From an uncultured Bacteroidales bacterium (GTDB taxonomy: Bacteria; Bacteroidota; Bacteroidia; Bacteroidales; Bacteroidaceae), in the NCBI GenBank assembly GCA_902779315.1, contig CACZBC010000004.1, positions 33,506 through 97,505 of the forward strand: DNA of 64,000 nt, written 5' to 3'. The notes below the pieces were generated by a model. That model ran no database searches and was not told where the DNA came from. It was given only the letters and a program-made list of their open reading frames with translations. Shown piece after piece: positions 159 through 63,858 of the stretch. The translations under genes were made by a program, and so were the position numbers. Each line of letters begins with the position of its first letter. Position 1 is the first letter of the stretch.

Positions 159-288
159 GCGTCGTTGGCAATTGTATAGTGTGACGTTGGCGATTAACTA
201 GTGTGACGTTTGCAATTTACTAACGTGAAGTTTGCAATTTACTAACGTGAAGTTTGCAATTTACTAGTGTGACGTTTGCAATCGTGGC
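159..288. repeat. 22-bp-period tandem array (array a), 5-6 units
   Basis: Units start at 179, 201, 223, 245 and 267: GTGTGACGTTGGCGATTAACTA / GTGTGACGTTTGCAATTTACTA / ACGTGAAGTTTGCAATTTACTA (x2, identical) / GTGTGACGTTTGCAATCGTGGC. Confidence 0.9.
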
Positions 289-310: not shown

Positions 311-2173
311 CTACTCTATTTCGCTGAGTTCGAGCCAACGCATAGATTTCTCGTCGAGCAAATCGTTGACTACGGGCAGGCGTTTGCTGAGGTCGATTAT
401 TTCCTGCGTGCTTAGGGTACCGCTGCTGAGGGCTGCCTCGATGTCGGCTTTCTCGTTCTCCAGCTCGTCGATTTCCTTTCCGAGAGCCTCGAACTCCTGC
501 TTCTCGCGGAAAGACATTTTGCGCTTTCTCTCTCCCTGGAATCTCGGAGTGCTCGGAGCGTTCTGAGTATTCTGAGCCTTCTTGGGCTCAGGTTCCAGCT
601 TCTCCCACTCTCTGTATTGCGTGTAATTGCCTGGGAAATCCTTCACAACACCGTTGCCTTTGAAGACGAAGAGGTGGTCCACAACCTTATCCATGAAGTA
701 GCGGTCGTGGCTGATGATGATGACGCAACCTCGGAAGTCCTGCAGGTATTGCTCCAGGATCTGCAGAGAAGTGATGTCGAGGTCGTTTGTGGGCTCGTCA
801 AGGACAAGGAAGTTGGGGCTTTGCATGAGTACGGTACAGAGGTAAAGCCTGCGCTTCTCGCCTCCAGAAAGCTTGTAGATGTAGTTCTGCTGCTGTTGGG
901 GCGAGAACATGAAATGCTGCAGGAACTGCATGGCGGAGAGCTTCCTTCCGCCTCCAAGGTCGACATATTCCGCGGTCTTGCGAACTGCGTCTATCACTTT
1001 CATCTGCTCGTTGAACTGCATTCCGTCCTGACTGTAATAGCCGAAACGCACGGTCTCGCCCACGACGAAACGACCGCTATCGGGCTTCACCAGTCCGAGC
1101 AGCATCTTGACGAAAGTGCTCTTGCCTGTGCCGTTATTGCCCACGATGCCGAGCTTCTCGTAGCGCGAGAAGTTGTAGTAGAAGTCCTTGAGCAGGACAA
1201 GGTCTCCGTATGCCTTGCTCACGTACTCGGCCTCGAATATCTTGCTGCCGATGTAGGTCGATTTCATCTCGAGCCTGACCTGCTGCTCCTCGATCCGGCG
1301 ATGGGCTTGCTTCTCCAGCTCGTAGAATGCTTCCTCGCGATACCTTGCTTTATGACCTCTGGCTTGAGGCATCCTTCGCATCCAGTCGAGTTCCGTCCTA
1401 TAGAGATTCGTAGCCCTCGCCACTTCAGCCCGAGCCACTTCCAGGCGTTGGGCACGATGTTCGAGGAAATAGGCATAGTTGCCCTGATAGGTGTAGACCG
1501 TCTCTTCGTCGAGTTCGAGAATGACGGAACAGACGCGGTCGAGGAAGTAGCGGTCGTGCGTCACCATAAGGAGCGTGACGTTGGACCGCGAGAGATAGTT
1601 CTCGAGCCACTCTATCATCTGCAGGTCGAGGTGGTTCGTCGGCTCGTCGAGGATGAGCAGGTCGGGCTCCATGATGAGCGTATTGGCAAGGGCGACACGC
1701 TTCAACTGGCCTCCTGAAAGCTGAGAGAGGGGCTTGTCAAACTCCGTGATGAAGAGCTGCGAGAGGATGGTCTTGGCGCGATTCTCATAGTCCCAAGCCT
1801 TCTGCTGCTCCATACGGTCCAGGATGTCTTGCAAGCCTTCCTGAGTGGCGGAAGCCATGCAGGTCTCGTACTCGCGGATGAGGTTGGTCGTCTCGTTTCC
1901 GTGCCAGAAGCAAGCCTCGATGACGGTCAGGTCGAGGGGATAGTTGGGCGTCTGCTCCAGATAGCCCACGCGAAGGTCATTATGGAAGACGACCTGCCCT
2001 TCGTCGGCCTGGTCCGCCCCGCTCAGAATGTTCAGGAGCGTGCTTTTGCCCGTGCCGTTCTTGGCGATGAGACCCACCTTCTGTCCCTCACCGATGCTGA
2101 AGCAGAGGTCGCGGAAAAGCGTCTTGTCCCCCACACTTCGCGTCAGATTCTGTACCTGCAAGTATGAAACCAT
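311..2173 (-). CDS. ABC-F family ATPase (two fused ABC cassettes, no membrane domain)
   Basis: ORF trimmed to Met19 (MVSYLQVQNL). Walker A appears twice (AKNGTGKST, GNNGTGKST) and the signature motif twice (LSGGQ, LSGGE). The C-terminal tail is charged and coiled-coil-like. A -7 box lies 14 nt upstream. Confidence 0.9.
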   Translation of the reverse strand: MVSYLQVQNLTRSVGDKTLFRDLCFSIGEGQKVGLIAKNGTGKSTLLNILSGADQADEGQVVFHNDLRVGYLEQTPNYPLDLTVIEACFWHGNETTNLIREYETCMASATQEGLQDILDRMEQQKAWDYENRAKTILSQLFITEFDKPLSQLSGGQLKRVALANTLIMEPDLLILDEPTNHLDLQMIEWLENYLSRSNVTLLMVTHDRYFLDRVCSVILELDEETVYTYQGNYAYFLEHRAQRLEVARAEVARATNLYRTELDWMRRMPQARGHKARYREEAFYELEKQAHRRIEEQQVRLEMKSTYIGSKIFEAEYVSKAYGDLVLLKDFYYNFSRYEKLGIVGNNGTGKSTFVKMLLGLVKPDSGRFVVGETVRFGYYSQDGMQFNEQMKVIDAVRKTAEYVDLGGGRKLSAMQFLQHFMFSPQQQQNYIYKLSGGEKRRLYLCTVLMQSPNFLVLDEPTNDLDITSLQILEQYLQDFRGCVIIISHDRYFMDKVVDHLFVFKGNGVVKDFPGNYTQYREWEKLEPEPKKAQNTQNAPSTPRFQGERKRKMSFREKQEFEALGKEIDELENEKADIEAALSSGTLSTQEIIDLSKRLPVVNDLLDEKSMRWLELSEIE

Positions 2174-2186
2174 GCCGTTTTTCCTG

Positions 2187-2194
2187 CAAAAGTA
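2187..2194 (-). promoter_or_regulatory. -7 promoter box TActTTTG for the ABC-F gene
   Basis: TAnnTTTG match 14 nt upstream of the ATG at 2173. Confidence 0.55.
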
Positions 2195-2220
2195 CAAAAA
2201 AAGGGAGAATAAACAAAGAT

Positions 2221-2248
2221 TTTTCACTTTTCACTTTTCACTTTTCAC
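2221..2248. repeat. heptamer microsatellite (TTTTCAC)4 = (GTGAAAA)4 on the minus strand
   Basis: Four perfect head-to-tail copies between the divergent ABC-F and rho promoters. Confidence 0.95.
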
Positions 2249-4314: not shown

Positions 4315-4568
4315 GTGGTCAAAGTGGTCAAAGCTGCGATTAAGTGAGGGCAATGATGCTTGAATCAATTGCCGAGCGTTAGCAGTCTCGACTATGGTCA
4401 AAGTGGTCAAGGTCAAAATGGTCAAAATGAATTTCAACTTCGCCAAGAAATGTCTATAATAATATACATATTATTATAGCAGACTTTTTGCAAATCCGAA
4501 AACGATTTTGACCAAATGACCAAATGACCAAAATGACCGCCCCGATGATTTTTTTGAAAAAAGTCTGC
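4315..4568. repeat. composite repeat locus: GGTCAAA-type short tandem repeats, an AT-rich palindrome and a 16-bp inverted repeat
   Basis: GTGGTCAAA x2 at 4315-4333, GGTCAA(A/G) x4 at 4395-4432, and (AAATGACC) x4 at 4506-4546. Palindrome CTATAATAATAT-AC-ATATTATTATAG at 4451-4484. Inverted repeat GCAGACTTTTTGCAAA (4479-4494) versus TTTGAAAAAAGTCTGC (4553-4568). Confidence 0.85.
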
Positions 4569-4747: not shown

Positions 4748-4830
4748 AATCGCAATCGTAACACGTTAACTTGGCCAATTACACGTGTGTAAGTTTGCAA
4801 ACGTCGCACTAGTAAATTGCAACGAACTAG
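4748..4830. repeat. 22-bp-period tandem array (array b), degenerate, opposite orientation
   Basis: Reads ...TAAGTTTGCAAACGTCGCACTAGTAAATTGCAACG..., the same family as array a read on the other strand. About 4 units. Confidence 0.75.
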
Positions 4831-4840
4831 GGTTGTTTCC

Positions 4841-5872
4841 TTACTTCCAAAGTCGCACTCCGACAAAGGCGTGGGCAACCCACTTGTTCTGGTGAACGGT
4901 TACGGCATCGTCAACGAAAAGGGAGTTGTTCGCCACTCCTGTAAGTCCGACGAAGTAACGCGAGGAGAAGTTATAAACTACGGCAACTCGCTCGTTGAAG
5001 AGCATGTTGAACTTCATTCGCCCTGCATGCTGGCTCTCGTCGTTGATGGTCAGCTTGTTGCGGTTATAGACGACAAAAGTGGGGAGAAAAGTCAGGTTGA
5101 GAAGCCATTTCCGGCCGAGGACGAGGTTGTAGCCGTAGCCGCCTCCGATGCCGACATGGCCCACATAGATGCGGACATCATGGTCGTCCGGATACCGCTC
5201 CTTCCGTTCGTCGCTCGTCTCGATGCTTCCGCCCTGATAGCTCAAGCCCGCAAGCCACGACCCTGCCGACCGGCGCTGGATGTAGCTCTGATTGTAGGCT
5301 GCAGAAACGCAGTAGCGGCGATGGTTGAAGACATAGTAGCCCGTGATGTTGAAGACCTTCATGTCCGCCTCGCCCTGCTCCAGTCGAAGCGCCTCGTCTC
5401 CGAGAGTCATGTCCCCGGACAACGAGGAAGAGCGCTGATAGCTGGCGTCAATGCAGAAACGGCTTGCATAGTAATTGAAGTTCAGCTCGTAGTCGTCGTA
5501 GAAGCCCCTCAGCTTGGCGGGATTGATGGAATAGGCAGCGGAGAGCCCACGATAGGTTCCGGCTATGGAGATGGTCGTCTTGTGACTGGTGCTCAGATTG
5601 GAATTGAAGCTGACATCGTTGACAGTCCCCTTCGACCGCATACTGTTGCCCGTCTGATTGCCCTTGAGTTTCAGCGTCAGTCCCCCTTCCGGACGAACCA
5701 CATAGTTCGTGTCGTACGATATCTTGTAATAACGGTCGGTAAGCAAGCTGTCCGCCTTCGCCCAAAACCTCTTCAGGCGGTTCCCTGCATGAACCTCGGA
5801 GAGGCAACAGACAAGGGACAACAGACAAAAGACAGCCCGAAAACCAACATTACGCATTACCCTTACGACCAT
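4841..5872 (-). CDS. secreted beta-rich outer-membrane-type protein (resembles the DUF4421 family)
   Basis: 343-aa ORF with a signal peptide (FRAVFCLLSLVCCLSEVHA) and alternating beta-strand composition rich in Y, G and N. The family name is from memory only. Confidence 0.6.
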   Translation of the reverse strand: MVVRVMRNVGFRAVFCLLSLVCCLSEVHAGNRLKRFWAKADSLLTDRYYKISYDTNYVVRPEGGLTLKLKGNQTGNSMRSKGTVNDVSFNSNLSTSHKTTISIAGTYRGLSAAYSINPAKLRGFYDDYELNFNYYASRFCIDASYQRSSSLSGDMTLGDEALRLEQGEADMKVFNITGYYVFNHRRYCVSAAYNQSYIQRRSAGSWLAGLSYQGGSIETSDERKERYPDDHDVRIYVGHVGIGGGYGYNLVLGRKWLLNLTFLPTFVVYNRNKLTINDESQHAGRMKFNMLFNERVAVVYNFSSRYFVGLTGVANNSLFVDDAVTVHQNKWVAHAFVGVRLWK

Positions 5873-5875
5873 CTG

Positions 5876-5935
5876 ACTATGAACTATGAACTATGAACTA
5901 TGAACTGTGGACTATGAACTATGAACTATGAACTG
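5876..5935. repeat. heptamer microsatellite (ACTATGA)n = (TTCATAG)n on the minus strand
   Basis: ACTATGA x4, ACTGTGG, ACTATGA x3. It fills the whole 65-nt gap between the patatin stop (5938-5940) and the next ATG (5872). Confidence 0.95.
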
Positions 5936-5937
5936 TC

Positions 5938-8166
5938 TCAGAACTCATACCCCAGGTTCAGATAGAAATACGGCTCCTTCGTGCGATTGCTATATCCGAA
6001 GGTAGCTCCAAGAGGGCCGAACATGGTTTTGTAGTAATAGGCAGCCTGAACGCCGAACAGAGTTGTGTGGTCGAAGATTTCCTTCAGCTTTTCCGCCTGC
6101 TGGGCCCCCGCCAAGCGAAGGAACACATAGTGGTTGGAGCCGAAACGATACTGGCCCTGGACTTGTGCCGCTATGAACTGGTCGGCGACGAACTCCACAT
6201 TCCCCACACCTGCGAAAGGCATCTGCTGCTCCACATAATGACTAAACCAATCGCCTCCGATGGTGTTGGCAAAGATGAAGGGGACCGCCTTGCCTAAAAG
6301 CATACGGCCGTAAACCATCGGTTGAAGCGTGAAGCGGTTGCCGAAAGAGAACGACCTGCGCCAGCTTGCACTGATATCGCTCAGACCGGCCTTGTCCTCG
6401 AGCTTGATGAGATTGTCCGTCAGATAGGCATACTCCGCCTTGAAACGCGTGCCTCGCGTCGGGAAGTACCAATCGTCTTCGCTATTGTAGTCCAGACGGG
6501 CACGATAGCTGTAATAGTGTCCGTTCGTGAGCGTGACGTTCGTCGATTTCTCCGATTCGAGCTTGTTGCGATAGTGCATGTAGTTCCAACGCAAGCCCAC
6601 CTGGAAATTGAAGTTGCGGAAATCGTTGCTGATAGGCACAATCTCGGCCTGGAACTGATTGTAGAGGATGCTGTAAGCACGGTCGCCTCCAACGTAGAAG
6701 TCAATATCGTTGTGGCGGAAAGTGTAGTTCAACGAAGGACGCGTGAAACTGCGGGGATGGGCCGTCAGTTCGCCTCGAGCCATAATGCGCTTGCCCAAAC
6801 GGACCGTCAGCTCAGTATTCATCGGCACAGACGACTTCTTCAAGGGCAATTCCAGCCCCAACAGGACGGCAGCATATTCCTCAGTATCGAACCGCAACCC
6901 CACATTGGCCTGAGCCGACTTGCGCTCGCCAGCGGAAAGCACCACAAACACGCCATCATCATCCGGCAAGAGCCGGCATTCGGCCGACTTGTAGAAGAGG
7001 TCCACACGCATGGAAGTGGTGAGCTGCTGCTGCAATTTGGCATCAATACTGTCGTTTTTCCGCAAATGGAACTTCTCGCGAAGGAAACGCTCGTCTTTCG
7101 GCGTCATGTTCTCGTACATATAGTCCTTAACCCTCTGACGCTCAGTCATAATCTTAGGACGGAGAGGATGATATCGGGGAGGGATAAAGCCCTCGGGAAG
7201 GTTCAGCCCCTTCTTCAGGGCCATCAGCTCATCATAGTGTCGCATAGCCTCCTCCTCGCCACGACGGATAAGCGTATCGACAGCTGCTGCGGAGAAACTC
7301 GCAGTATTGTAGCCCGTCGTATTGACTCGCATGTGCAAATCGGTCATGGCAATGTTCTCCTCGAGCTTGTTCTTGCAGTTTATATCGATAATCTGGTTCA
7401 AGACGCCAAGCGTGCCCTTAATCTCGTCGGCAGTTTTCGGGTCGCCCTGAACAGTAACGCCAATGATGACGTCTGCCCCCATTTCCTTGGCAAGGTCGGC
7501 AGGATAGTTGTTCTTCATGCCGCCATCGGTAAGCACCATATCGCCTAGCCTTACAGGAGCAAAAGCTGCCGGAATGGCCATCGAAGCGCGCATGGCTTGA
7601 GGCAATCTGCCGCTATGGAAATCGACTTCGCTATTGTCGATAATATTCGTTGCCACACAAGCGAAAGGTATCTTCAGGTCCTTCGAGAAATCGAGCGAGT
7701 CGGTATAGCCCGTACAGAGCTGCCCGAAGAGTTCAGCAAGGTTCTTTCCCTTGATGAGACCGCCCTCGCCGGTTTTGTTCTTGCCGAAGGAAAGTCCCGT
7801 AGAAAACACGTAAGTATATTGCTTGCGACGGTCGGTAAGGCTTTGGTTGCGAAGGTCTTCCTTGTCGGTAATGACGTAGCTCCAGTCCTGCTTTCGTACC
7901 ATTGAATCGAGCGAATTGGCGTTATAACCGATGGCATAAAGGCCACCAATGATGCTGCCCATCGATGTGCCGGCAATGTAATCGATAGGAATGCCTGCCC
8001 GTTCCAAAACCTTCAGCACGCCGATATGTGCCATACCTTTCGCTCCGCCGCCACTAAGAACGACGCCGACCTTTTTCCTTGCCGGAGCAGGTACGCTGTC
8101 CTGCTGAGCATTCATATTGCAGCACAAAAAGGCCGCAACAACGAGCAACAAAAGCCTTCTCTTCAT
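5938..8166 (-). CDS. patatin-like phospholipase fused to an Omp85/BamA-type C-terminal beta-barrel
   Basis: Signal peptide, then GGGAKG, the GTSMG nucleophile elbow and DGG. The C-terminal beta-barrel is about 400 aa and ends in ...NLGYEF. Confidence 0.9.
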   Translation of the reverse strand: MKRRLLLLVVAAFLCCNMNAQQDSVPAPARKKVGVVLSGGGAKGMAHIGVLKVLERAGIPIDYIAGTSMGSIIGGLYAIGYNANSLDSMVRKQDWSYVITDKEDLRNQSLTDRRKQYTYVFSTGLSFGKNKTGEGGLIKGKNLAELFGQLCTGYTDSLDFSKDLKIPFACVATNIIDNSEVDFHSGRLPQAMRASMAIPAAFAPVRLGDMVLTDGGMKNNYPADLAKEMGADVIIGVTVQGDPKTADEIKGTLGVLNQIIDINCKNKLEENIAMTDLHMRVNTTGYNTASFSAAAVDTLIRRGEEEAMRHYDELMALKKGLNLPEGFIPPRYHPLRPKIMTERQRVKDYMYENMTPKDERFLREKFHLRKNDSIDAKLQQQLTTSMRVDLFYKSAECRLLPDDDGVFVVLSAGERKSAQANVGLRFDTEEYAAVLLGLELPLKKSSVPMNTELTVRLGKRIMARGELTAHPRSFTRPSLNYTFRHNDIDFYVGGDRAYSILYNQFQAEIVPISNDFRNFNFQVGLRWNYMHYRNKLESEKSTNVTLTNGHYYSYRARLDYNSEDDWYFPTRGTRFKAEYAYLTDNLIKLEDKAGLSDISASWRRSFSFGNRFTLQPMVYGRMLLGKAVPFIFANTIGGDWFSHYVEQQMPFAGVGNVEFVADQFIAAQVQGQYRFGSNHYVFLRLAGAQQAEKLKEIFDHTTLFGVQAAYYYKTMFGPLGATFGYSNRTKEPYFYLNLGYEF

Positions 8167-8198
8167 AACTATGAACTATGGACTATGAACTATGAACC
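8167..8198. repeat. heptamer microsatellite (AACTATG)n
   Basis: AACTATG AACTATG GACTATG AACTATG. It contains the folD stop codon (8190-8192) and abuts the patatin ATG (8166). Confidence 0.9.
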
Positions 8199-9075: not shown

Positions 9076-9110
9076 GACTATGAACTATGAATTATTAACT
9101 ATAAACTACA
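9076..9110. repeat. degenerate heptamer repeat (GACTATG AACTATG AATTATT AACTATA AACTACA)
   Basis: Same heptamer family, between the ffh stop (9106-9108) and the folD ATG (9071). Confidence 0.8.
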
Positions 9111-12844: not shown

Positions 12845-15265
12845 ATGATTGAAATATTTTCCGATTGCACTCTCTATTCAAAAACTAAACTAACAACTGT
12901 TTTGGGGCTCTTCCTCCTCCCGTCCATGGGCGTTGGAGGAACTCTTTTTGCCAACGAGATGGACACGCTTTCCGTCCGCCAGATGGACGAGGTCGTGGTG
13001 GTCAGCACCCCCAAAGAGCACAATGCCCTGCGCCTCCAACCCCTCGTCTCCACCTCGCTCGGACAGGCACAACTGCTCGAAAAGGGCGTCAAGGGCATCA
13101 AGGACCTTTCCGCCAACATTCCGGGCCTTTTCATCCCCACGTATGGCAGCCGTCTGACCAGCAGCATCTATCTCCGTGGCGTTGGTAGCCGAATCGGAAC
13201 GCCTGCCGTGGGCATGTACATCGACAATGTGCCTCTGGCCACCATGAGCAGCATGGACCAAGACCTCAGCGACGCCGACCGAATCGATGTGCTGCGAGGC
13301 CCTCAGGGCACACTTTTCGGCCGCAATACCATAGGCGGACTCATTCGCGTCTTCACGAAGAATCCCATGAGCTATCAGGGCACCGACCTCCTGCTCAGTG
13401 GCGCTACCTATAATAATTATCGCGCGCGCGTGACGCACTACCACCGCCCTTCCGAACGCTTTGCCTTTAGTGCCGGAGTGGGTTACGAGCATCTGGGAGG
13501 CTTTTACAAGAACCAAGCTCTCGACGGCAAACATGCCGACCGCAGCGACGACATAGCGGCCAATTGGCGGGGCATCTTCGTGCCTTCTGACCGCGTCCGT
13601 CTCGACCTGACGGCCCGCTACCAATGGACCAGGCAGGGCGGTTATCCCTATGCCGCACAGCAGGGCCCCGATGCCGGACAAGTCGCTTACAATCGCGCTT
13701 CCAGCTATCTTCGCAACCTCCTCACACTGGGGCTCAATGCCGAGCACGACCTGGGGCGCGTCATGATGACCAGCACGACCGGATTCCAGTTCCTCCGCGA
13801 CGACATGTTCATGGATCAGGACTTCTCGCGTCAGGACCTCTATTCGCTCCAGCAAAAGCAGAAGAGCAAAACCCTCAGCGAGGAGATAGCCGTCAAGTCG
13901 AAGGGCAATGGCCGATGGCAGTGGACCTCGGGCGTCAATTTCCAGTACCAGTGGCTTCGCACCGACGCGCCCGTCACGTTCTATCAGGAAGGCGTCGACT
14001 GGCTCTCGGGCATCATCAACCGTAGTCTGCCCGACCTCACAGCCCAGGGCATGGGCCCCATGTCCGTCGCGCTCAAGAACAGCGTCATGCCTATGGGCGG
14101 CACGTTCCAGACCCCTACCCTCAATGCCGGACTCTTCCACCAGTCGTCCATCCGGCTTGCCGAGCACCTCACCTTCACGGCTGGGCTCCGTCTCGACTAC
14201 GAGCACCAGAGCATGGACTACGACGCACCGGGCAGTGTCGATTTTGACTTTGCCATCCGTAGCGAACGGCCTCAGAACAGCGTGACGCTCAACGACCTGC
14301 ACATCACGCCCGCCTTCCTGGGCCATACCAGCCGCCACGACTGGCACATCCTCCCCAAGGCATCGCTCCAGTACGACTTCGGCCAGACGGCCAACGTCTA
14401 TGCCACGGTCAGCCGCGGTTATCGTTCCGGAGGCTACAACCCCCAGATGTTCAGCGACTTGCTGCAGATTGAGATGCGCCGCGAGATGATGGCGGCCATC
14501 GATGCCGGGACCGAGGCATACCTGACCGACCTTTTTGCCAGCAACCCGCGCGTTCCGGCCGGACATGTGGATATGATCATGGGGCGCATCCGTTCGGGCA
14601 TGCCCACAGTGGAGCGTCCCGACGTCGCCACAGCCGCATCCTATAAGCCCGAAAACGCTTGGAACTACGAGCTGGGCACCCATCTCTCCCTGCTCGACGG
14701 AAGGCTCAAGGCCGACCTTGCCGCCTTCTGGATCGAGACGCACGACCTGCAGCTCAGCCAGATGGCCGAGAGCGGAATGGGCCGTATCACGGTCAATGCG
14801 CAGCGCAGCCGCAGTCTGGGCATGGAGGCCGCCCTCCAGGCAGTCCTCTCCGACCATCTCTACCTCGATGGCAGCTACGGCTACACGCATGCCACGCTGC
14901 GTCACAGCGGCACCGAGGGGCATCCCGACGACTATCGCGTGCCCTTCGCACCCGAGCACACCCTGGCGCTTGGCGCCAAATATGTCTGGAACACCCGCGG
15001 TTGGATTCAGCACGTCAGTCTCTATGCCGGAGGCAAGGCCAACGGCCGCACCTGGTGGACCAGGGAGAACGACCTCTCGCAGCCCTTCTATGCTTTGCTC
15101 GACAGCCGTCTGACCGTCGTTCACGACAACTTGGAACTGAGTCTTTGGGGGCACAATCTCACCGACACCCACTATGCCGCCTTCAGTTTCGCCACGCGTG
15201 GACAAGTCTTCTCCCAGAAAGGAACCCCACTGCAAGTGGGACTCGATTTAAGAATGAAACTCTAA
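12845..15265 (+). CDS. TonB-dependent outer-membrane receptor (non-SusC type)
   Basis: Plug-domain motifs (DEVVVVSTPKE, YLRGVGSR, VLRGPQGTLFGRNTIGG) followed by a long beta-barrel. 806 aa. Confidence 0.9.
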   Translation: MIEIFSDCTLYSKTKLTTVLGLFLLPSMGVGGTLFANEMDTLSVRQMDEVVVVSTPKEHNALRLQPLVSTSLGQAQLLEKGVKGIKDLSANIPGLFIPTYGSRLTSSIYLRGVGSRIGTPAVGMYIDNVPLATMSSMDQDLSDADRIDVLRGPQGTLFGRNTIGGLIRVFTKNPMSYQGTDLLLSGATYNNYRARVTHYHRPSERFAFSAGVGYEHLGGFYKNQALDGKHADRSDDIAANWRGIFVPSDRVRLDLTARYQWTRQGGYPYAAQQGPDAGQVAYNRASSYLRNLLTLGLNAEHDLGRVMMTSTTGFQFLRDDMFMDQDFSRQDLYSLQQKQKSKTLSEEIAVKSKGNGRWQWTSGVNFQYQWLRTDAPVTFYQEGVDWLSGIINRSLPDLTAQGMGPMSVALKNSVMPMGGTFQTPTLNAGLFHQSSIRLAEHLTFTAGLRLDYEHQSMDYDAPGSVDFDFAIRSERPQNSVTLNDLHITPAFLGHTSRHDWHILPKASLQYDFGQTANVYATVSRGYRSGGYNPQMFSDLLQIEMRREMMAAIDAGTEAYLTDLFASNPRVPAGHVDMIMGRIRSGMPTVERPDVATAASYKPENAWNYELGTHLSLLDGRLKADLAAFWIETHDLQLSQMAESGMGRITVNAQRSRSLGMEAALQAVLSDHLYLDGSYGYTHATLRHSGTEGHPDDYRVPFAPEHTLALGAKYVWNTRGWIQHVSLYAGGKANGRTWWTRENDLSQPFYALLDSRLTVVHDNLELSLWGHNLTDTHYAAFSFATRGQVFSQKGTPLQVGLDLRMKL

Positions 15266-17852: not shown

Positions 17853-17883
17853 GGTTAGCGGTTAGGGGTTAGCGGTTAGCGCG
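17853..17883. repeat. heptamer microsatellite (GGTTAGC)n
   Basis: GGTTAGC GGTTAGG GGTTAGC GGTTAGC. Its reverse complement (GCTAACC)n recurs at 35129-35175. Confidence 0.9.
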
Positions 17884-17933: not shown

Positions 17934-17988
17934 AGAAAAAGATTAGAGATTAACGATTAGAGTACGGGAGTTTTTTCACATTTCCTAT

Positions 17989-18023
17989 CATTTTTCATTT
18001 TTAACTTTTCATTTTTCATTTTA
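17989..18023. repeat. degenerate heptamer repeat (TCATTTT)n
   Basis: TCATTTT TCATTTT TAACTTT TCATTTT TCATTTT, immediately upstream of the -7 box at 18030. Confidence 0.8.
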
Positions 18024-22022: not shown

Positions 22023-22154
22023 GTGACGATGCCGAACGTCTAACGTGACGATTGCAAACATCTAACGTGACAAATGCGATTTAACAACGTGACGTTTGCA
22101 TTTTAACAACGTGACGTTTACGATTTAACCACGTTATGTTTCGACGCTTCACCA
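22023..22154. repeat. 22-bp-period tandem array (array c), six units, between pyrK and pyrD
   Basis: Units start exactly at 22023, 22045, 22067, 22089, 22111 and 22133 (GTGACGATTGCAAACATCTAAC, GTGACGTTTGCATTTTAACAAC and others). The last unit overlaps the pyrK stop. Confidence 0.9.
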
Positions 22155-23010: not shown

Positions 23011-23131
23011 GTTTTGCAACACTCTGCACGATGTTTCCCTTCACTCAGCACGGCGTTTTTCAACACTCTGCACGATGTTTCCCTTAACTCTGCACGATGT
23101 TTCCCTTCACTCAGCGTGGTGTTTTTCCATC
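23011..23131. repeat. diverged 22-bp-phased tandem array (array i), A-B-A-A-B pattern
   Basis: CTCTGCACGATGTTTCCCTT occurs at 23022, 23066 and 23088. CACTCAGC(A/G)(C/T)GG(C/T)GTTTTTC occurs at 23042 and 23108. All spacings are multiples of 22. Confidence 0.85.
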
Positions 23132-26682: not shown

Positions 26683-26813
26683 GTCGCCTGCCACGTTCCC
26701 AAACGTCACACTAGTAAATCCCAAACATCACACTATACGATTGCATTCGTCACACTATACGTTTGCATTCGTCGCACTATACGTTTGCAATCGTCGAACA
26801 TCGGGTTCAAAAG
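26683..26813. repeat. 22-bp-period tandem array (array d)
   Basis: Units at 26704, 26726, 26748 and 26770 (CGTCACACTAGTAAATCCCAAA, CGTCACACTATACGTTTGCATT and others), plus degenerate flanking units. Confidence 0.9.
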
Positions 26814-26847
26814 AAGGGCGTGCCTCCGTTCTGCAGAAGCACGCCCC
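26808..26847 (-). terminator. intrinsic terminator of the zinc-ribbon gene
   Basis: GGGCGTGC ... GCACGCCC 8-bp stem, followed on the minus strand by TTCTTTTG. Confidence 0.6.
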
Positions 26848-26870
26848 CATTGTGTCCTGAAGGGTGAGGC

Positions 26871-32776: not shown

Positions 32777-32803
32777 GGCTTACAGCTTACGGCTTACAGC
32801 TTA
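32777..32803. repeat. heptamer microsatellite (GGCTTAC/AGCTTAC)n
   Basis: GGCTTAC AGCTTAC GGCTTAC AGCTTA, in the gap between glnN and the next gene. Confidence 0.9.
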
Positions 32804-34109: not shown

Positions 34110-34295
34110 ATTAAGAACAGAGGTTCATAGCATCGAAAACAGGGCCCGTTTCCGCTGCATGAGCTAAAGCTCAAAATCCACTGCGAGTCTGCTCACGCTC
34201 GACCATCAGAGAACAAGTTCTCATGGTACTCGCTAAAACGCAGACTTGCAGGCGTGAAAGATGAGGGAACTACTGCAGGGTAAACTCGGATTTTC
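34110..34295 (+). ncRNA. candidate structured RNA (sRNA, or 5' part of a long leader)
   Basis: 12-bp long-range pairing of 34181-34192 (CTGCGAGTCTGC) with 34240-34251 (GCAGACTTGCAG, one G-U pair). It encloses hairpin 34203-26 (CCAT..GAGAAC-AA-GTTCTC-ATGG). A second hairpin, GAGC-TAAA-GCTC, lies at 34161-72. No ORF. Boundaries are guessed. Confidence 0.3.
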
Positions 34296-34366
34296 ACACG
34301 TGAAGTTTGCAAACTTCAAACGTGATGTTGGCCAACTTCAAACGCGATGTTTGAAACTTCACTAGG
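34296..34366. repeat. 22-bp-period tandem array (array e), three units
   Basis: Units at 34300, 34322 and 34344: GTGAAGTTTGCAAACTTCAAAC / GTGATGTTGGCCAACTTCAAAC / GCGATGTTTGAAACTTCACTAG. Confidence 0.85.
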
Positions 34367-35073: not shown

Positions 35074-35098
35074 AATTCAAAATTCAAAATTCAAAATT
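35074..35098. repeat. heptamer microsatellite (AATTCAA)n
   Basis: AATTCAAAATTCAAAATTCAAAATT. Confidence 0.9.
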
Positions 35099-35128: not shown

Positions 35129-35175
35129 CGCTAACCGCTCAACACTAACCGCTAACCGCTCAACTCTAAACTAAA
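35129..35175. repeat. heptamer repeat (GCTAACC)n, degenerate
   Basis: CGCTAACCGCTCAACACTAACCGCTAACCGCTCAACTCTAAACTAAA. Reverse complement of the repeat at 17853. Confidence 0.85.
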
Positions 35176-41968: not shown

Positions 41969-41978
41969 CGAAAAAAAG

Positions 41979-42008
41979 TGAAAAGTGAAAAGTGAAAAAT
42001 GAAAAATT
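41979..42008. repeat. heptamer microsatellite (GTGAAAA)n
   Basis: GTGAAAA GTGAAAA GTGAAAA ATGAAAA ATT, between divergent promoters. Same heptamer as at 2221-2248. Confidence 0.95.
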
Positions 42009-43724: not shown

Positions 43725-43876
43725 CTTCACGCTAAAATGGCAAACATGGCACGTGATGTTTGCAATCGTCACACTAGTAAATGCCAAACTTCACACTAGT
43801 AAATGCCAAACTTCACACTAGTAAATGCCAATCGTCACACTAGTTAAATGCAATCGTGGCACGTGATGTTTGGGAT
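43725..43876. repeat. 22-bp-period tandem array (array f), seven units, best-preserved copy
   Basis: Units at 43745, 43767, 43789, 43811, 43833 and 43855. CTTCACACTAGTAAATGCCAA occurs twice, with CGTCACACTAGTAAATGCCAAA. Flanked by the direct repeat GGCACGTGATGTTTG (43748-62 and 43858-72). Confidence 0.95.
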
Positions 43877-48460: not shown

Positions 48461-48548
48461 GTGCCACGATTGCATTTAACTAGTGTGACGATTGCAATTT
48501 ACTAGTGTGACGTTTGCAATCATCACGTGCCACGTTTTTTGGCTAAGC
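48461..48548. repeat. 22-bp-period tandem array (array g), four units
   Basis: Units at 48461, 48483, 48505 and 48527: GTGCCACGATTGCATTTAACTA / GTGTGACGATTGCAATTTACTA / GTGTGACGTTTGCAATCATCAC / GTGCCACGTTTTTTGGCTAAGC. The last unit overlaps the leuB stop. Confidence 0.9.
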
Positions 48549-54738: not shown

Positions 54739-54928
54739 CGAAAAAGCGAGCGAAATACAAAAGGAAAACGGATTTTTTTCTTTTTATTTCCGAGCGAAGA
54801 CTGTAGCTCAACCATAGGTCAAGGTCAGAAGAATAGTAGAGGAAACAAAACAAAGACAGAAAAAAGAGCCGTTAAATTAGCAAACTATGCCTGCAAGGTT
54901 TGACAACTACTGCAGAGTCGTCCGAAAA

Positions 54929-55038
54929 CGTCACACTAGTAAATGCCAAACGTCACACTAGTAAAATGCAAACGTCACACTAGTAAATCGCAAACGTCAC
55001 ACTATACGTTTGCAATCGTGGCACTATATGTTTGGCAA
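54929..55038. repeat. 22-bp-period tandem array (array h), five units
   Basis: Units at 54929, 54951, 54973, 54995 and 55017: CGTCACACTAGTAAATGCCAAA / CGTCACACTAGTAAAATGCAAA / CGTCACACTAGTAAATCGCAAA / CGTCACACTATACGTTTGCAAT / CGTGGCACTATATGTTTGGCAA. Confidence 0.95.
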
Positions 55039-61925: not shown

Positions 61926-63752
61926 TTGGATTCAGCACATTTGAATTACAACGATTGGCTGCCGACGACCAGGAAAGAGATGGACCTGCGTGGGTGGGAA
62001 CAGGCTGACGTGATTCTCTTCAGCGCAGATGCCTATGTGGACCATCCTGCCTTTGGAGCGGCTGTCATAGGGCGTTTGCTCGAGGCAGAGGGCTTGCGCG
62101 TGGCCATCGTGCCCCAACCCGACTGGCATGGAGATTTCCGCGACTTCAAGAAGCTGGGACGTCCCCGTCTCTTCTTCGGCATCTCGCCCGGATGCATGGA
62201 CAGCATGGTGAACAAATACACCGCTGCCCGCCGCCTCAGGAGCGAGGATGCATACAGTCCCGACGGGCGGCACGACTTGCGTCCCGAGTACCCCACCATC
62301 GTCTATACCGACATCCTCAGGAAGCTCTTTCCCGATGTTCCCATCGTGCTCGGAGGCATCGAGGCAAGCCTGCGCCGAGTGATGCACTACGACTATTGGC
62401 AGGAGCGTTTCCGCCCCAGCATCCTTCAGGATTGCGATGCCGACCTCATCACTTATGGAATGGGAGAAAAGCCCACGCTGGAGCTCGTTCAGCGGCTCAA
62501 CGAGGCAATCGATTGCTTCCATCCGAAACTTCACTACGACGAGAATGGTGAGCCTTGCATCACGCGGGAAGTGATGCGCGAGGTGGTGGCCGAGATGCCC
62601 AACCAGATTGCCTTCATCTGCAAGCAGGAAGAGATACCCGGAGGCATCAAGGAGGACGACATCGTGCTCCACAGCTACGAGGATTGCCTGAAGCAGCCCA
62701 AGCTTCACGCCGAGAACTTCCGACACATCGAGGAAGAGAGCAACAAAGTGCACGCTCAGCGACTCCTGCAAGCCACAGGAGGGCGTTACGTCGTCGTCAA
62801 TCCTCCCTACCCTCCGCTCACTTCCGAAGAGCTGGACCGCAGTTTCGACTTGCCTTACACCCGCCTTCCGCACCCGAAATACAAGGGCAAACGCATCCCC
62901 GCCTACGAGATGATCAAGTTCAGCGTCACGCTCCATCGCGGATGCTTCGGGGGATGTGCCTTCTGCACGATAAGCGCGCATCAGGGCAAATTCATCGTGA
63001 GCCGTTCGAAGGAGAGCATATTAAGGGAAGTGAAAGCCATTGCCAAGATGCCCGACTTCAAGGGCTACCTGAGCGACCTTGGCGGGCCGAGCGCCAACAT
63101 GTACAAGATGCGGGGCAAGCGCCAGGAAGTGTGCGAGAAGTGCAAACGCCCCTCGTGCATCCATCCTGCCATCTGTCCGAACCTGAACGGAGACCACCGC
63201 CCCCTGCTCGACATCTACCGCGCTGTGGATGCGTTGCCGGGCATCAAGAAGAGCTTCATTGGCAGCGGTGTCCGCTACGATATGCTCCTACACGACTGGA
63301 AGGACGAAGCCCTGAACAATGCGGCCCGAGAATACACCCGCGAGCTCATCACCAAGCACGTCAGCGGACGCCTGAAGGTGGCTCCCGAGCACACCAGCGA
63401 CACCGTCCTGAACATCATGCGCAAGCCCTCATTCCGGCTCTTCCGCGAGTTCAAAAGCATCTTCGACGCCACTTGCCGCAGGGCAGGATTAAGGCAGCAA
63501 CTCATTCCCTACTTCATCAGCTCGCACCCCGGCTGCACGGAGCGCGATATGGCCGAGCTGGCACAAATCACGAAGCAGCTGGACTTCAAACTCGAGCAGG
63601 TTCAGGACTTCACACCCACGCCCCTCACAGTCAGCACAACATGCTGGGCAACGGGCTATCATCCCTACACGCTCGAGAAGATTTTCAGCGCCAAGACACC
63701 CGAGGAAAAGCGCCGCCAGAACAGCTTCTTCTTCTGGTACAAGAAAACTTGA
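61926..63752 (+). CDS. ygiQ: YgiQ-family radical SAM protein
   Basis: DWLPTTRKEMDLRGWEQADVILFSADAYVDHPAFG N-terminus and a CxxxCxxC cluster (CFGGCAFC). TTG start directly after the upstream stop. Confidence 0.9.
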   Translation: MDSAHLNYNDWLPTTRKEMDLRGWEQADVILFSADAYVDHPAFGAAVIGRLLEAEGLRVAIVPQPDWHGDFRDFKKLGRPRLFFGISPGCMDSMVNKYTAARRLRSEDAYSPDGRHDLRPEYPTIVYTDILRKLFPDVPIVLGGIEASLRRVMHYDYWQERFRPSILQDCDADLITYGMGEKPTLELVQRLNEAIDCFHPKLHYDENGEPCITREVMREVVAEMPNQIAFICKQEEIPGGIKEDDIVLHSYEDCLKQPKLHAENFRHIEEESNKVHAQRLLQATGGRYVVVNPPYPPLTSEELDRSFDLPYTRLPHPKYKGKRIPAYEMIKFSVTLHRGCFGGCAFCTISAHQGKFIVSRSKESILREVKAIAKMPDFKGYLSDLGGPSANMYKMRGKRQEVCEKCKRPSCIHPAICPNLNGDHRPLLDIYRAVDALPGIKKSFIGSGVRYDMLLHDWKDEALNNAAREYTRELITKHVSGRLKVAPEHTSDTVLNIMRKPSFRLFREFKSIFDATCRRAGLRQQLIPYFISSHPGCTERDMAELAQITKQLDFKLEQVQDFTPTPLTVSTTCWATGYHPYTLEKIFSAKTPEEKRRQNSFFFWYKKT

Positions 63753-63757
63753 CATCA

Positions 63758-63852
63758 TTGATTTTGAAACTTGAATTTTGGATTTAATATTTTTGAATCT
63801 TGAATTTATTAATTTTGAATTTTGAATTTTGAATTAACTAATTTTGAATTAA
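63758..63852. repeat. heptamer microsatellite tract (TTTTGAA)n, partly degenerate
   Basis: ...AATTTTGAATTTTGAATTTTGAATT... It fills the gap between ygiQ and the next gene. Confidence 0.9.
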
Positions 63853-63858
63853 CAGATA

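Follow-up and report, generated by a model that had tools for sequence, protein, structure and literature searches.

Spacer-less 22-bp tandem arrays dispersed between the genes of an uncultured Bacteroidales bacterium

Arrays in the window and their placement relative to genes

This analysis concerns a family of short tandem repeats found in an uncultured Bacteroidales bacterium (GenBank assembly GCA_902779315.1). The window, that is, the whole stretch of DNA that was analysed, comprises 64,000 nucleotides of contig CACZBC010000004.1 (positions 33,506 to 97,505 of the forward strand), with a GC content of about 52%. It harbours nine arrays with a period of 22 bp, all of them intergenic, occurring in both orientations and made of units that abut without spacers (Table 1). 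The focal array, at 43725-43876, lies 23 bp past the stop codon of a PD40-repeat gene and 37 bp ahead of the next gene start, and its units can be read directly from the sequence, head to tail, at 43745, 43767, 43789, 43811, 43833 and 43855. No intrinsic terminator or sigma-70 promoter of note was found in this gap.

The initial annotation of the window, made from the sequence alone, had described exact 22-bp arrays in nine intergenic gaps, in both orientations and without spacers. Direct reading, Tandem Repeats Finder (TRF) and a position weight matrix (PWM) built from the array units and compared with shuffled sequence confirm all of this, TRF reporting 22-bp arrays at eight places. The consensus 22-mer of that annotation matches the window nine times at up to three mismatches, against 0 matches in 100 shuffles, while the PWM detects 31 units, against 0-3 in shuffles. 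About 29 window units are strong matches and the remainder is degenerate, so the earlier figure of about 45 units per 64 kb is reached only by including the diverged array at 23011 and edge units that are degenerate. Similarly, the array at 4748-4830 belongs to the family through one strong unit at 4802 but is mostly degenerate. The hexamers ACTAGT and TTGCAA, formerly assigned to each unit, are not found in every one: the focal array carries GCCAAA, and variant unit cores include ACTATACGTT and ACGTGATGTT. Stop codons can be read on both strands of the units (TAG/TAA or TAG/TGA). Altogether, tandem repeats make up about 14% of the intergenic bases of the window.

The strand of the flanking genes was checked with Pfam for all nine arrays. 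No transposase or integrase, as the annotation had stated for the vicinity of the arrays, and no gene for a RAYT (Y1 HUH) transposase was detected by Pfam in the scanned open reading frames (ORFs) of the window, which correspond to most of its 53 gene calls. Rfam gave no match at the gathering score across the whole window. A literature search for the 22-mer, for Prevotella tandem or repetitive extragenic palindromic (REP)-like repeats and for heptanucleotide repeats did not find the unit sequence, and nothing relevant emerged except the BrickBuilt element discussed below; together with the Rfam result, this agrees with the former view that the repeat is not a named element.

The PWM was then applied to a census set of 1.01 Mb, consisting of the window and at least 120 metagenome contigs that match one unit variant, in which at least 674 units were found in at least 189 arrays. 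Arrays with two or more units number at least 163 and occupy at least 106 distinct genomic sites, window included, which extends the family well beyond the stretch where it had been noticed. The following figures hold among the matches listed. Of 485 pairs of adjacent units, 450 show the 22-bp distance, the units directly abutting, so that a CRISPR array, already discounted in the annotation, is ruled out by the lack of spacers. A single orientation is kept in 158 of the 189 arrays. The largest array has seven units, a figure affected by short-read assembly, in which many arrays abut contig ends and longer or more uniform ones have probably been censored.

Placement relative to genes was analysed with an own codon-usage gene caller, whose strand assignments agreed with Pfam wherever they were checked. 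Among the same matches, none of the 163 arrays (106 sites) lies inside a gene call. By site, 59 gaps are co-directional, 22 convergent and 15 divergent; measured against their share of intergenic bases, convergent gaps are enriched about 2-fold and divergent (promoter) gaps are depleted, at about 0.55-fold. In co-directional gaps the array is closer to the upstream stop codon in 48 of 59 cases, with a median distance of 33 bp from the stop versus 128 bp from the next start. The orientation of the arrays shows no bias with respect to transcription (27 same, 23 opposite).

The family is also present in two phage contigs, L241 and L242 (GC 42%; terminase large subunit, E = 1.7e-67), in which a 4-unit array (12868-12911 and 7688-7731, respectively) lies upstream of a radical SAM gene, indicating that it crosses replicons. 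A nearly identical array was observed in the small contig L171. As for the host, the LeuA protein of the window recurs without any change in several metagenome assemblies of ENA, and the closest named relatives of its PyrD and LeuB are metagenome-assembled genomes (MAGs) labelled Bacteroidaceae, Bacteroidales or Prevotella. The 22-bp family occurs in a Bacteroidaceae MAG from yak rumen (L120), and related arrays were found in rumen Prevotella MAGs. The host would thus be an uncultured Prevotella-type bacterium (Bacteroidaceae as defined by GTDB) of the rumen or of a herbivore gut. A cyanobacterial host, which the heptamer arrays described below had first suggested, was rejected on the grounds of the GC content of about 52% and of the protein matches to rumen-type Bacteroidaceae or Prevotella MAGs. 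The two best-scoring LeuB relatives, P0121 (487 aa) and P0122 (460 aa), exceed the window protein (359 aa) by 100-130 residues; these gene calls may run through neighbouring DNA.

Whole-unit turnover between strains and sister species

Comparison of orthologous gaps between strains revealed copy-number variation in whole units. Two or more complete alleles are available at 34 sites, of which 12 show equal lengths, 14 differ by 22 bp and 8 by 44 bp. Length thus varies at 22 of the 34 sites, only in steps of 22 or 44 bp and between nearly identical flanks. In the gap between the GH25 gene and leuA (array 54929-55038), for instance, L002 has one extra 22-bp unit, and both L002 and L003 carry a different end unit, while strains differ by one unit at the array 26683-26813. 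Unit-level alignment of the alleles is noisy at array ends, where the placement of insertions and deletions is unreliable.

Turnover on a longer scale was followed in the gap between the pyrK-like gene and pyrD, using relatives with 90-95% identical PyrD. In the window this gap is 165 bp long and occupied by a family array, whereas in four sister species (L243, L249, L250 and L251) it measures 0-14 bp and is empty. L244, L245 and L248 have a gap of 165-166 bp that contains a different 22-bp array (AATGGTTAACATATTTGGCAAG), and the 436-bp gap of L246 holds two further unrelated 22-bp arrays together with a 9-bp array. Since the gap is empty in four sister species, the arrays are additions to a once tight operon junction. 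Moreover, because an array sits within this operon, the arrays cannot be efficient terminators and would not stop transcription.

Replacement of one unit sequence by another at the same position is not limited to this gap. In the convergent gap corresponding to that of the window array 26683-26813 (26704), L251 has an unrelated 22-bp array, AATAAGCGCTGGGCTCTTCCGA repeated ten times, and leuB of L255 is immediately followed by a different 22-bp array. L255 belongs to a set of four genomes further removed in GC content and gene order (LeuB identity 88-91%); the other three lack 22-bp arrays.

A separate observation concerns possible exchange between arrays. Contigs L125 (5620-5728) and L182 (3466-3530) have an array and its 3' flank in common, with entirely different 5' flanks; either arrays of separate loci have recombined, or assembly has created a chimera at the repeat.

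Array anatomy, origin and alternative explanations

The anatomy of the arrays was read with all of them oriented as CGTCAC.... Each unit contains two conserved blocks with a variable core between them, and the motif TTGCAAACGTCAC stands at each unit junction. The order of the unit types is polar, starting with 'A' (ACTAGTAAAT), followed by 'a' (ACTAGTTAAT) and then by 'B' (ACTAGATG.T) or 'C' (ACTATACG.T), and the last unit is mostly a degenerate CGTCAC-TG..G.CGTT or a palindromic 'D' unit (ACGTGAYGTT). A precedes C in 109 cases and follows it in 21, the corresponding counts being 62:7 for A and B and 39:3 for A and a. The unit that precedes the first recognised one has the consensus ........GTGACGTT.GCAAA, which, together with the next CGTCAC, gives a 20-bp palindrome, GTGACGTTTGCAAACGTCAC, often formed at one end of the array. 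The near-palindrome GTGACG-n-TTGCAA-n-CGTCAC of the initial annotation is real and recurs at one array boundary. There, the motif TTGCAAACGTCAC is often present in both orientations, and 32 of 105 arrays have GTGACG (up to one mismatch); 18 of the 105 boundaries form a palindrome, compared with 15 of 312 internal junctions. Only the end units and the 'D' type are palindromic, the commonest unit type having 4 of 10 palindromic pairs. Conservation ends one unit beyond the array on either side.

Hairpins form only in the palindromic end units, as in the focal array (z = -4.0); for most arrays, folding does not exceed that of shuffled sequence (z between -0.05 and -2.6). A single large secondary structure spanning each array is not supported, the gain over shuffles being modest at best. 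Two other candidate features were dropped. The hexamer ACTAGT beside the 20-bp palindrome was considered as a target duplication, but it is itself palindromic and merely extends the inverted repeat. Bacteroidetes promoters have TTTG at -33 and TAnnTTTG at -7; TACGTTTG occurs in some units, but its distance of 14 nt to the previous TTTG, judged by eye, does not fit such a promoter.

The boundary palindrome resembles the end of a known type of mobile element. The terminal inverted repeat (TIR) of the IS5 family listed for ISNme1 and BrickBuilt is GAGACCTTTGCAAA (Table 2 of PMC4596501), and the boundary half-site of the window family, GTGACGTTTGCAAA, is identical to it at 12 of 14 positions. By this likeness, GTGACGTTTGCAAACGTCAC may correspond to two abutted IS5-family terminal repeats, and every unit junction (TTGCAAA|CGTCAC) would be a right-end-like site. 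Instead of marking two outer ends, the TIR-like motif lies within each unit and forms a palindrome at one boundary.

The 22-bp period itself extends beyond the family. A TRF survey of 125 kb from six relatives, not chosen for arrays, found 13 arrays of period 7, 8 of period 22/44 and 3 of any other period of at least 16, and the 22-bp units of these relatives are mostly unrelated in sequence. Searching a genome collection with CGTCAC-N16-CGTCAC-N16-CGTCAC proved too loose, as among the matches listed most are unrelated high-GC 22-bp repeats and the informative ones are Prevotella-type and one Poribacteria only. Among these matches, the windows from Prevotella-type MAGs contain further 21-23-bp arrays that the search pattern had not selected; the 99 windows from other phyla contain none beyond those selected. 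By these comparisons, that of the four more distant genomes included, the phenomenon is restricted to a clade. When 30 families or variants with a 22-bp period were scored, 12 had at least 7 of 10 palindromic pairs in the best 20-bp window plus 2 bp (null probability 0.069), although the 30 are not all independent, several being related or found via the CGTCAC search pattern. A make-up of the 22 bp as a 20-bp palindrome of two TIRs plus 2 bp is thereby suggested, though not demonstrated.

Several arrays of the wider surveys were of interest in themselves. The Candidatus Poribacteria MAG L082 (1690-1770) has a 22-bp array of CGTCACATTTAGGACGTTTGCA repeated three times and ending in the palindrome CGTCAC-A-GTGACG, with the motif ACGTTTGCA-CGTCAC in common with the Prevotella family despite the different phylum. 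Human-gut Bacteroides L007 (about 6870-6919), L017 (about 5801-5850) and L066 (6443-6499) carry a 13-bp motif, approximately ATAC/ATAG-CGTCAC-TAT, every 22 bp; the sequence between the motifs is not conserved, which makes them phased sites and not tandem repeats. In Prevotellamassilia timonensis (L110, 2385-3044), six arrays follow one another inside 700 bp; their periods are 21, 22 and 23 bp, and their units differ.

On balance, the arrays are probably lineage-specific, interspersed, spacer-less 22-bp minisatellites, selfish or neutral, non-coding and non-autonomous, which spread in trans via their palindromic end. This interpretation is based on their distribution, their independence of orientation, their dispensability, the polymorphism in whole units, the copy in a phage and the TIR-like palindrome at one end. 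The likeness of the palindrome to abutted IS5-family TIRs suggests that a DNA-binding or DNA-cutting enzyme, most likely a transposase, would act in trans on this end to seed and spread the arrays. These would later lengthen or shorten via slipped-strand mispairing or unequal recombination between units. No cellular function would be needed, the arrays being tolerated where they would do least harm, at the 3' ends of genes.

Several results weigh against this interpretation. Simple local slippage does not predict that divergence within and between arrays should be nearly equal, yet A-type units differ at 1.88 positions within an array and at 2.06 between arrays, and perfectly matching neighbours make up 12% of adjacent pairs, compared with 8% of random ones; this is odd, with the proviso that short-read assembly disfavours identical neighbours. 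Neither a conserved leader nor a conserved tail was found, as an all-against-all blastn of 208 flanks (about 105 sites) yielded only sporadic short matches, and there are no array-specific TIRs, the two ends of an array being no more complementary to each other than to those of other arrays (p = 0.41). No clear target-site duplication can be seen between the empty and filled pyrK-pyrD gaps. The likeness to the IS5-family TIR was noticed post hoc and, given the number of comparisons, its estimated chance probability is about 1e-3 to 1e-2. In the window and about 1 Mb of related contigs, neither an insertion sequence (IS) or transposase with matching ends nor a multi-copy gene was found, an absence of little weight given that IS copies are where short-read contigs usually break. 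Finally, the 22-bp period common to unrelated units points to a constraint that the proposed spread and slippage leave unaccounted for.

The family is undescribed, fast-changing, probably selfish, and resembles known bacterial interspersed repeats, its features as a whole fitting the BrickBuilt, REP/BIME and MIRU kind described below. The closest described element is BrickBuilt, a minisatellite and transposable element of the miniature inverted-repeat type (MITE) from Porphyromonas gingivalis. BrickBuilt is a spacer-less 23-nt tandem repeat, intergenic and variable between strains by whole units, and 22-nt repeats are also mentioned in strain W83 (Klein et al. 2015, PMC4596501). It has a leader of up to 285 nt and a tail of up to 318 nt, ending in IS5-type TIRs, and its 19 copies in 2.3 Mb contain up to 22.8 units (PMC4596501). 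Both systems belong to the same order and share a nearly equal unit length, an exclusively intergenic location, whole-unit expansion and contraction between strains, presence or absence at given loci, dyad symmetry and frequent stop codons; furthermore, the BrickBuilt TIR GAGACCTTTGCA resembles the boundary motif GTGACGTTTGCA of the window family. In contrast, the window family has unique flanks without leader or tail, carries the TIR-like motif inside every unit and reaches about nine arrays per 64 kb, with 3-7 units each as assembled. No sequence homology emerged between the two.

Other systems share only some of these features. Similarly to the REP sequences and bacterial interspersed mosaic elements (BIMEs) of enterobacteria and pseudomonads, which form hundreds of short extragenic copies, the window family is biased to 3' ends and convergent gaps, occurs in both orientations and has clustered, partly palindromic units in the range of 20-40 nt. 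However, REPs within BIMEs alternate in orientation and are separated by variable linkers, whereas the window family is strictly head to tail at exactly 22 bp and its commonest unit is not palindromic. Mycobacterial interspersed repetitive units (MIRUs) are likewise dispersed intergenic tandem repeats, found also inside operons, with strain variation of the variable number of tandem repeats (VNTR) type. MIRU units are 40-100 bp long, are reportedly oriented with the operon and are reported to contain short ORFs that overlap the stop and start codons of flanking genes; the units of the window family are only 22 bp long, rich in stop codons and independent of orientation. In cyanobacteria, heptamer arrays of the kind known as short tandemly repeated repetitive sequences (STRRs) reportedly coexist in intergenic DNA with hairpin-bearing small dispersed repeats (SDRs) of 21-27 nt, which Elhai and colleagues are said to have proposed in 2008 to be mobile and often nested in their own copies. 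Heptamer arrays also accompany the dispersed 22-nt repeats here, but the phylum is another, SDRs are single insertions and not exact tandem repeats, and there is no sequence similarity.

The significance of the family lies in its density and variability. Prevotella-type bacteria dominate the rumen and many guts, and their non-coding DNA is almost undescribed. The arrays break short-read assemblies, are usable as a VNTR-type marker for strain typing and may drive rearrangements between arrays. They can also alter operon architecture, as illustrated by the separation of pyrK and pyrD, which are 0-14 bp apart in sister species.

Two alternatives to selfish or neutral minisatellites are comparably unlikely. 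The first is self-targeted insertion, in which a 20-bp palindrome of two TIRs, with a 2-bp duplication or spacer, inserts repeatedly beside its own copy at one end, so that an array would document the active unit from youngest to oldest, with a period of 20 + 2. The array at 34293 parses exactly in this way, with GTGAAGTTTGCAAACTTCAC as the 20-bp palindrome (10 of 10 pairs palindromic) and AC as the 2-bp spacer, and the palindromic pairing of the 12 families, the period common to unrelated units and the nearly equal divergence of units within and between arrays agree with it. So does the strong unit order at more than 100 loci, from the derived ACTAGTAAAT to the palindrome-like ACGTGAYGTT. However, the same pattern results when any 22-bp unit is duplicated in tandem, several of the palindromic families lack independence, an enzyme capable of such insertion is not known and strain differences, in the few cases inspected, lie at internal units and not at the palindromic end. 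If true, the 20 + 2 bp unit would be the smallest transposable unit known and a new route to minisatellites. An extension of this idea, tentative and of low likelihood, is that trans-acting machinery in the Prevotella clade imposes a 22-bp ruler, the basic mobile unit being the self-inserting palindrome plus 2 bp; the ruler is perhaps general to Bacteroidales, as P. gingivalis has 22- and 23-nt tandem repeats. The shared period, often resolved as 20 + 2 bp, makes a transposase-like enzyme that builds minisatellites from its own ends a testable proposal.

The second is that the units are iteron-like sites, the blocks CGTCACAC and T.GCAA being bound on one helix face by a nucleoid-associated protein, insulator or regulator of the host, so that the arrays would organise or insulate neighbouring transcription units. 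The exact phasing, the two conserved blocks around a variable core and a period kept while the unit sequence changes are all compatible with such binding, as are the CGTCAC/GTGACG half-sites, direct and inverted, in arrays of Prevotella MAGs (L015, L039, L044, L059 and L105). Binding sites of this kind would hardly be missing from the orthologous gap of four sister species, differ in number between near-identical strains, be replaced by different unit sequences at the same gaps in different species or gather at gene 3' ends and avoid divergent promoter gaps. Moreover, about nine arrays per 64 kb amount to thousands of sites per genome, enough to titrate any ordinary regulator, and no candidate protein is linked to the arrays. 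Plasmid iterons, such as the 22-bp iterons of R6K and pSC101, are also tandem direct repeats of about 22 bp; however, they occur once per replicon, at the origin beside a rep gene, whereas the window family occupies at least 106 sites behind ordinary genes, with no rep gene. Between the two options that the initial annotation had offered, the REP/MITE-like selfish repeat fits and the iteron-like binding array is disfavoured.

A role at the RNA level, as a 3' untranslated or intercistronic stabiliser, attenuator, terminator or protein sponge of the kind proposed for REP, is more doubtful still. Arrays located about 33 bp from stop codons, one of them within an operon, are very probably transcribed, end units form hairpins, and the genes on either side of the focal array are not cut off from it by any terminator-like site. 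Random orientation (27:23), however, makes the RNA sequence vary from site to site, and such a role is further contradicted by the shuffle-like folding of most arrays, the lack of an Rfam match and the inability of the pyrK-pyrD array to terminate efficiently. An artefact of assembly or scanning, or chance repetition, is practically negligible: short-read assembly handles tandem repeats poorly and many arrays abut contig ends, but the same arrays and flanks appear in independent assemblies from different studies, and shuffled controls give nearly no matches.

Coordinates and other repeats of the window

Table 1. Tandem arrays of the window (coordinates refer to the window)
Feature	Position	Strand	Support	Gene context and remarks
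22-bp array, ~5-6 units	163..288	-	TRF 163-282, period 22, 5.5 copies; PWM units 165, 187, 209, 231, 253	29 bp downstream of the stop of an ABC-F gene (311-2227, minus strand; Pfam ABC_tran)
Degenerate 22-bp array, strong unit 4802-4823 plus decayed units	4748..4830	+	repeat register, PWM	rho/DUF4421 convergent gap, 11 bp from the DUF4421 stop (Pfam Rho_RNA_bind, DUF4421)
22-bp array, ~5-6 units, cores GTTGTTAAAA and GTTAGATGTT	22023..22154	-	TRF 22023-22141; PWM; Pfam neighbours	fills the 165-bp gap between the pyrK-like gene and pyrD
Diverged 22/44-bp array, unit CACTCAGCACGATGTTTCCCTT	23011..23131	+	TRF 23020-23115, period 22, 4.4 copies; repeat register	between an HTH_3 gene stop and the pyrK-like gene start (Pfam); unit akin to the palindromic 'D' type
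22-bp array, ~5 units, one ACTAGTAAAT unit, then ACTATACG units	26683..26813	+	TRF 26728-26795; PWM; Pfam	HSDR_N_2/Zn_ribbon_9 convergent gap; adjoins a terminator-like hairpin at 26816-26850
22-bp array, 3 nearly self-complementary units	34293..34366	.	TRF 34293-34361; repeat register; Pfam	upstream of an HU-HIG gene; other neighbour a pyruvyl transferase gene
22-bp array (focal), four ACTAGT(A/T)AA units with palindromic units CGTGGCACGTGATGTTTG on both sides	43725..43876	+	TRF 43763-57; PWM	see text
22-bp array, ~4 units	48461..48548	-	TRF 48466-48520; repeat register; PWM; Pfam	abuts the stop of leuB; upstream of a porin gene
22-bp array, 5 units	54929..55038	+	TRF 54926-55004; PWM	32 bp past the GH25 gene stop, 228 bp ahead of the leuA start
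Heptamer arrays	2221-2252, 5876-5934, 8167-8197, 9077-9108, 17853-17881		TRF	
Heptamer arrays	17988-18022, 32778-32803, 35074-35098, 35129-35169, 41974-42005		TRF	

In addition to the 22-bp family, TRF finds many 7-bp arrays in the window, filling many of its short gaps (Table 1). In the lineage, 7 is the commonest tandem period, accounting for 61 of the 229 arrays outside the 22-bp family. The repeat (ACTATGA)n is present in three consecutive gaps of the gene string DUF4421 / patatin-Omp85 / folD / ffh, and constitutes essentially all of the 65-bp gap at 5873-5937. The heptamer TTTTCAC recurs at unrelated loci of L246 and L251, so dispersed families exist among the heptamers as well.

In the convergent gap between rho and the DUF4421 gene, (A/G)TGGTCAAA arrays stand opposite reverse-complement TTTGACCA arrays about 100 bp away (4315-4333, 4394-4429 and 4509-4538), and the two flank an AT-rich palindrome, TCTATAATAATATACATATTATTATAG. 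Finally, an AT-rich compound repeat of TTTTGAA and ATTTTGAAT, with overlapping periods of 7, 15, 22 and 29, occupies 63761-63853, directly after the stop codon of a radical SAM gene (61926-63752).

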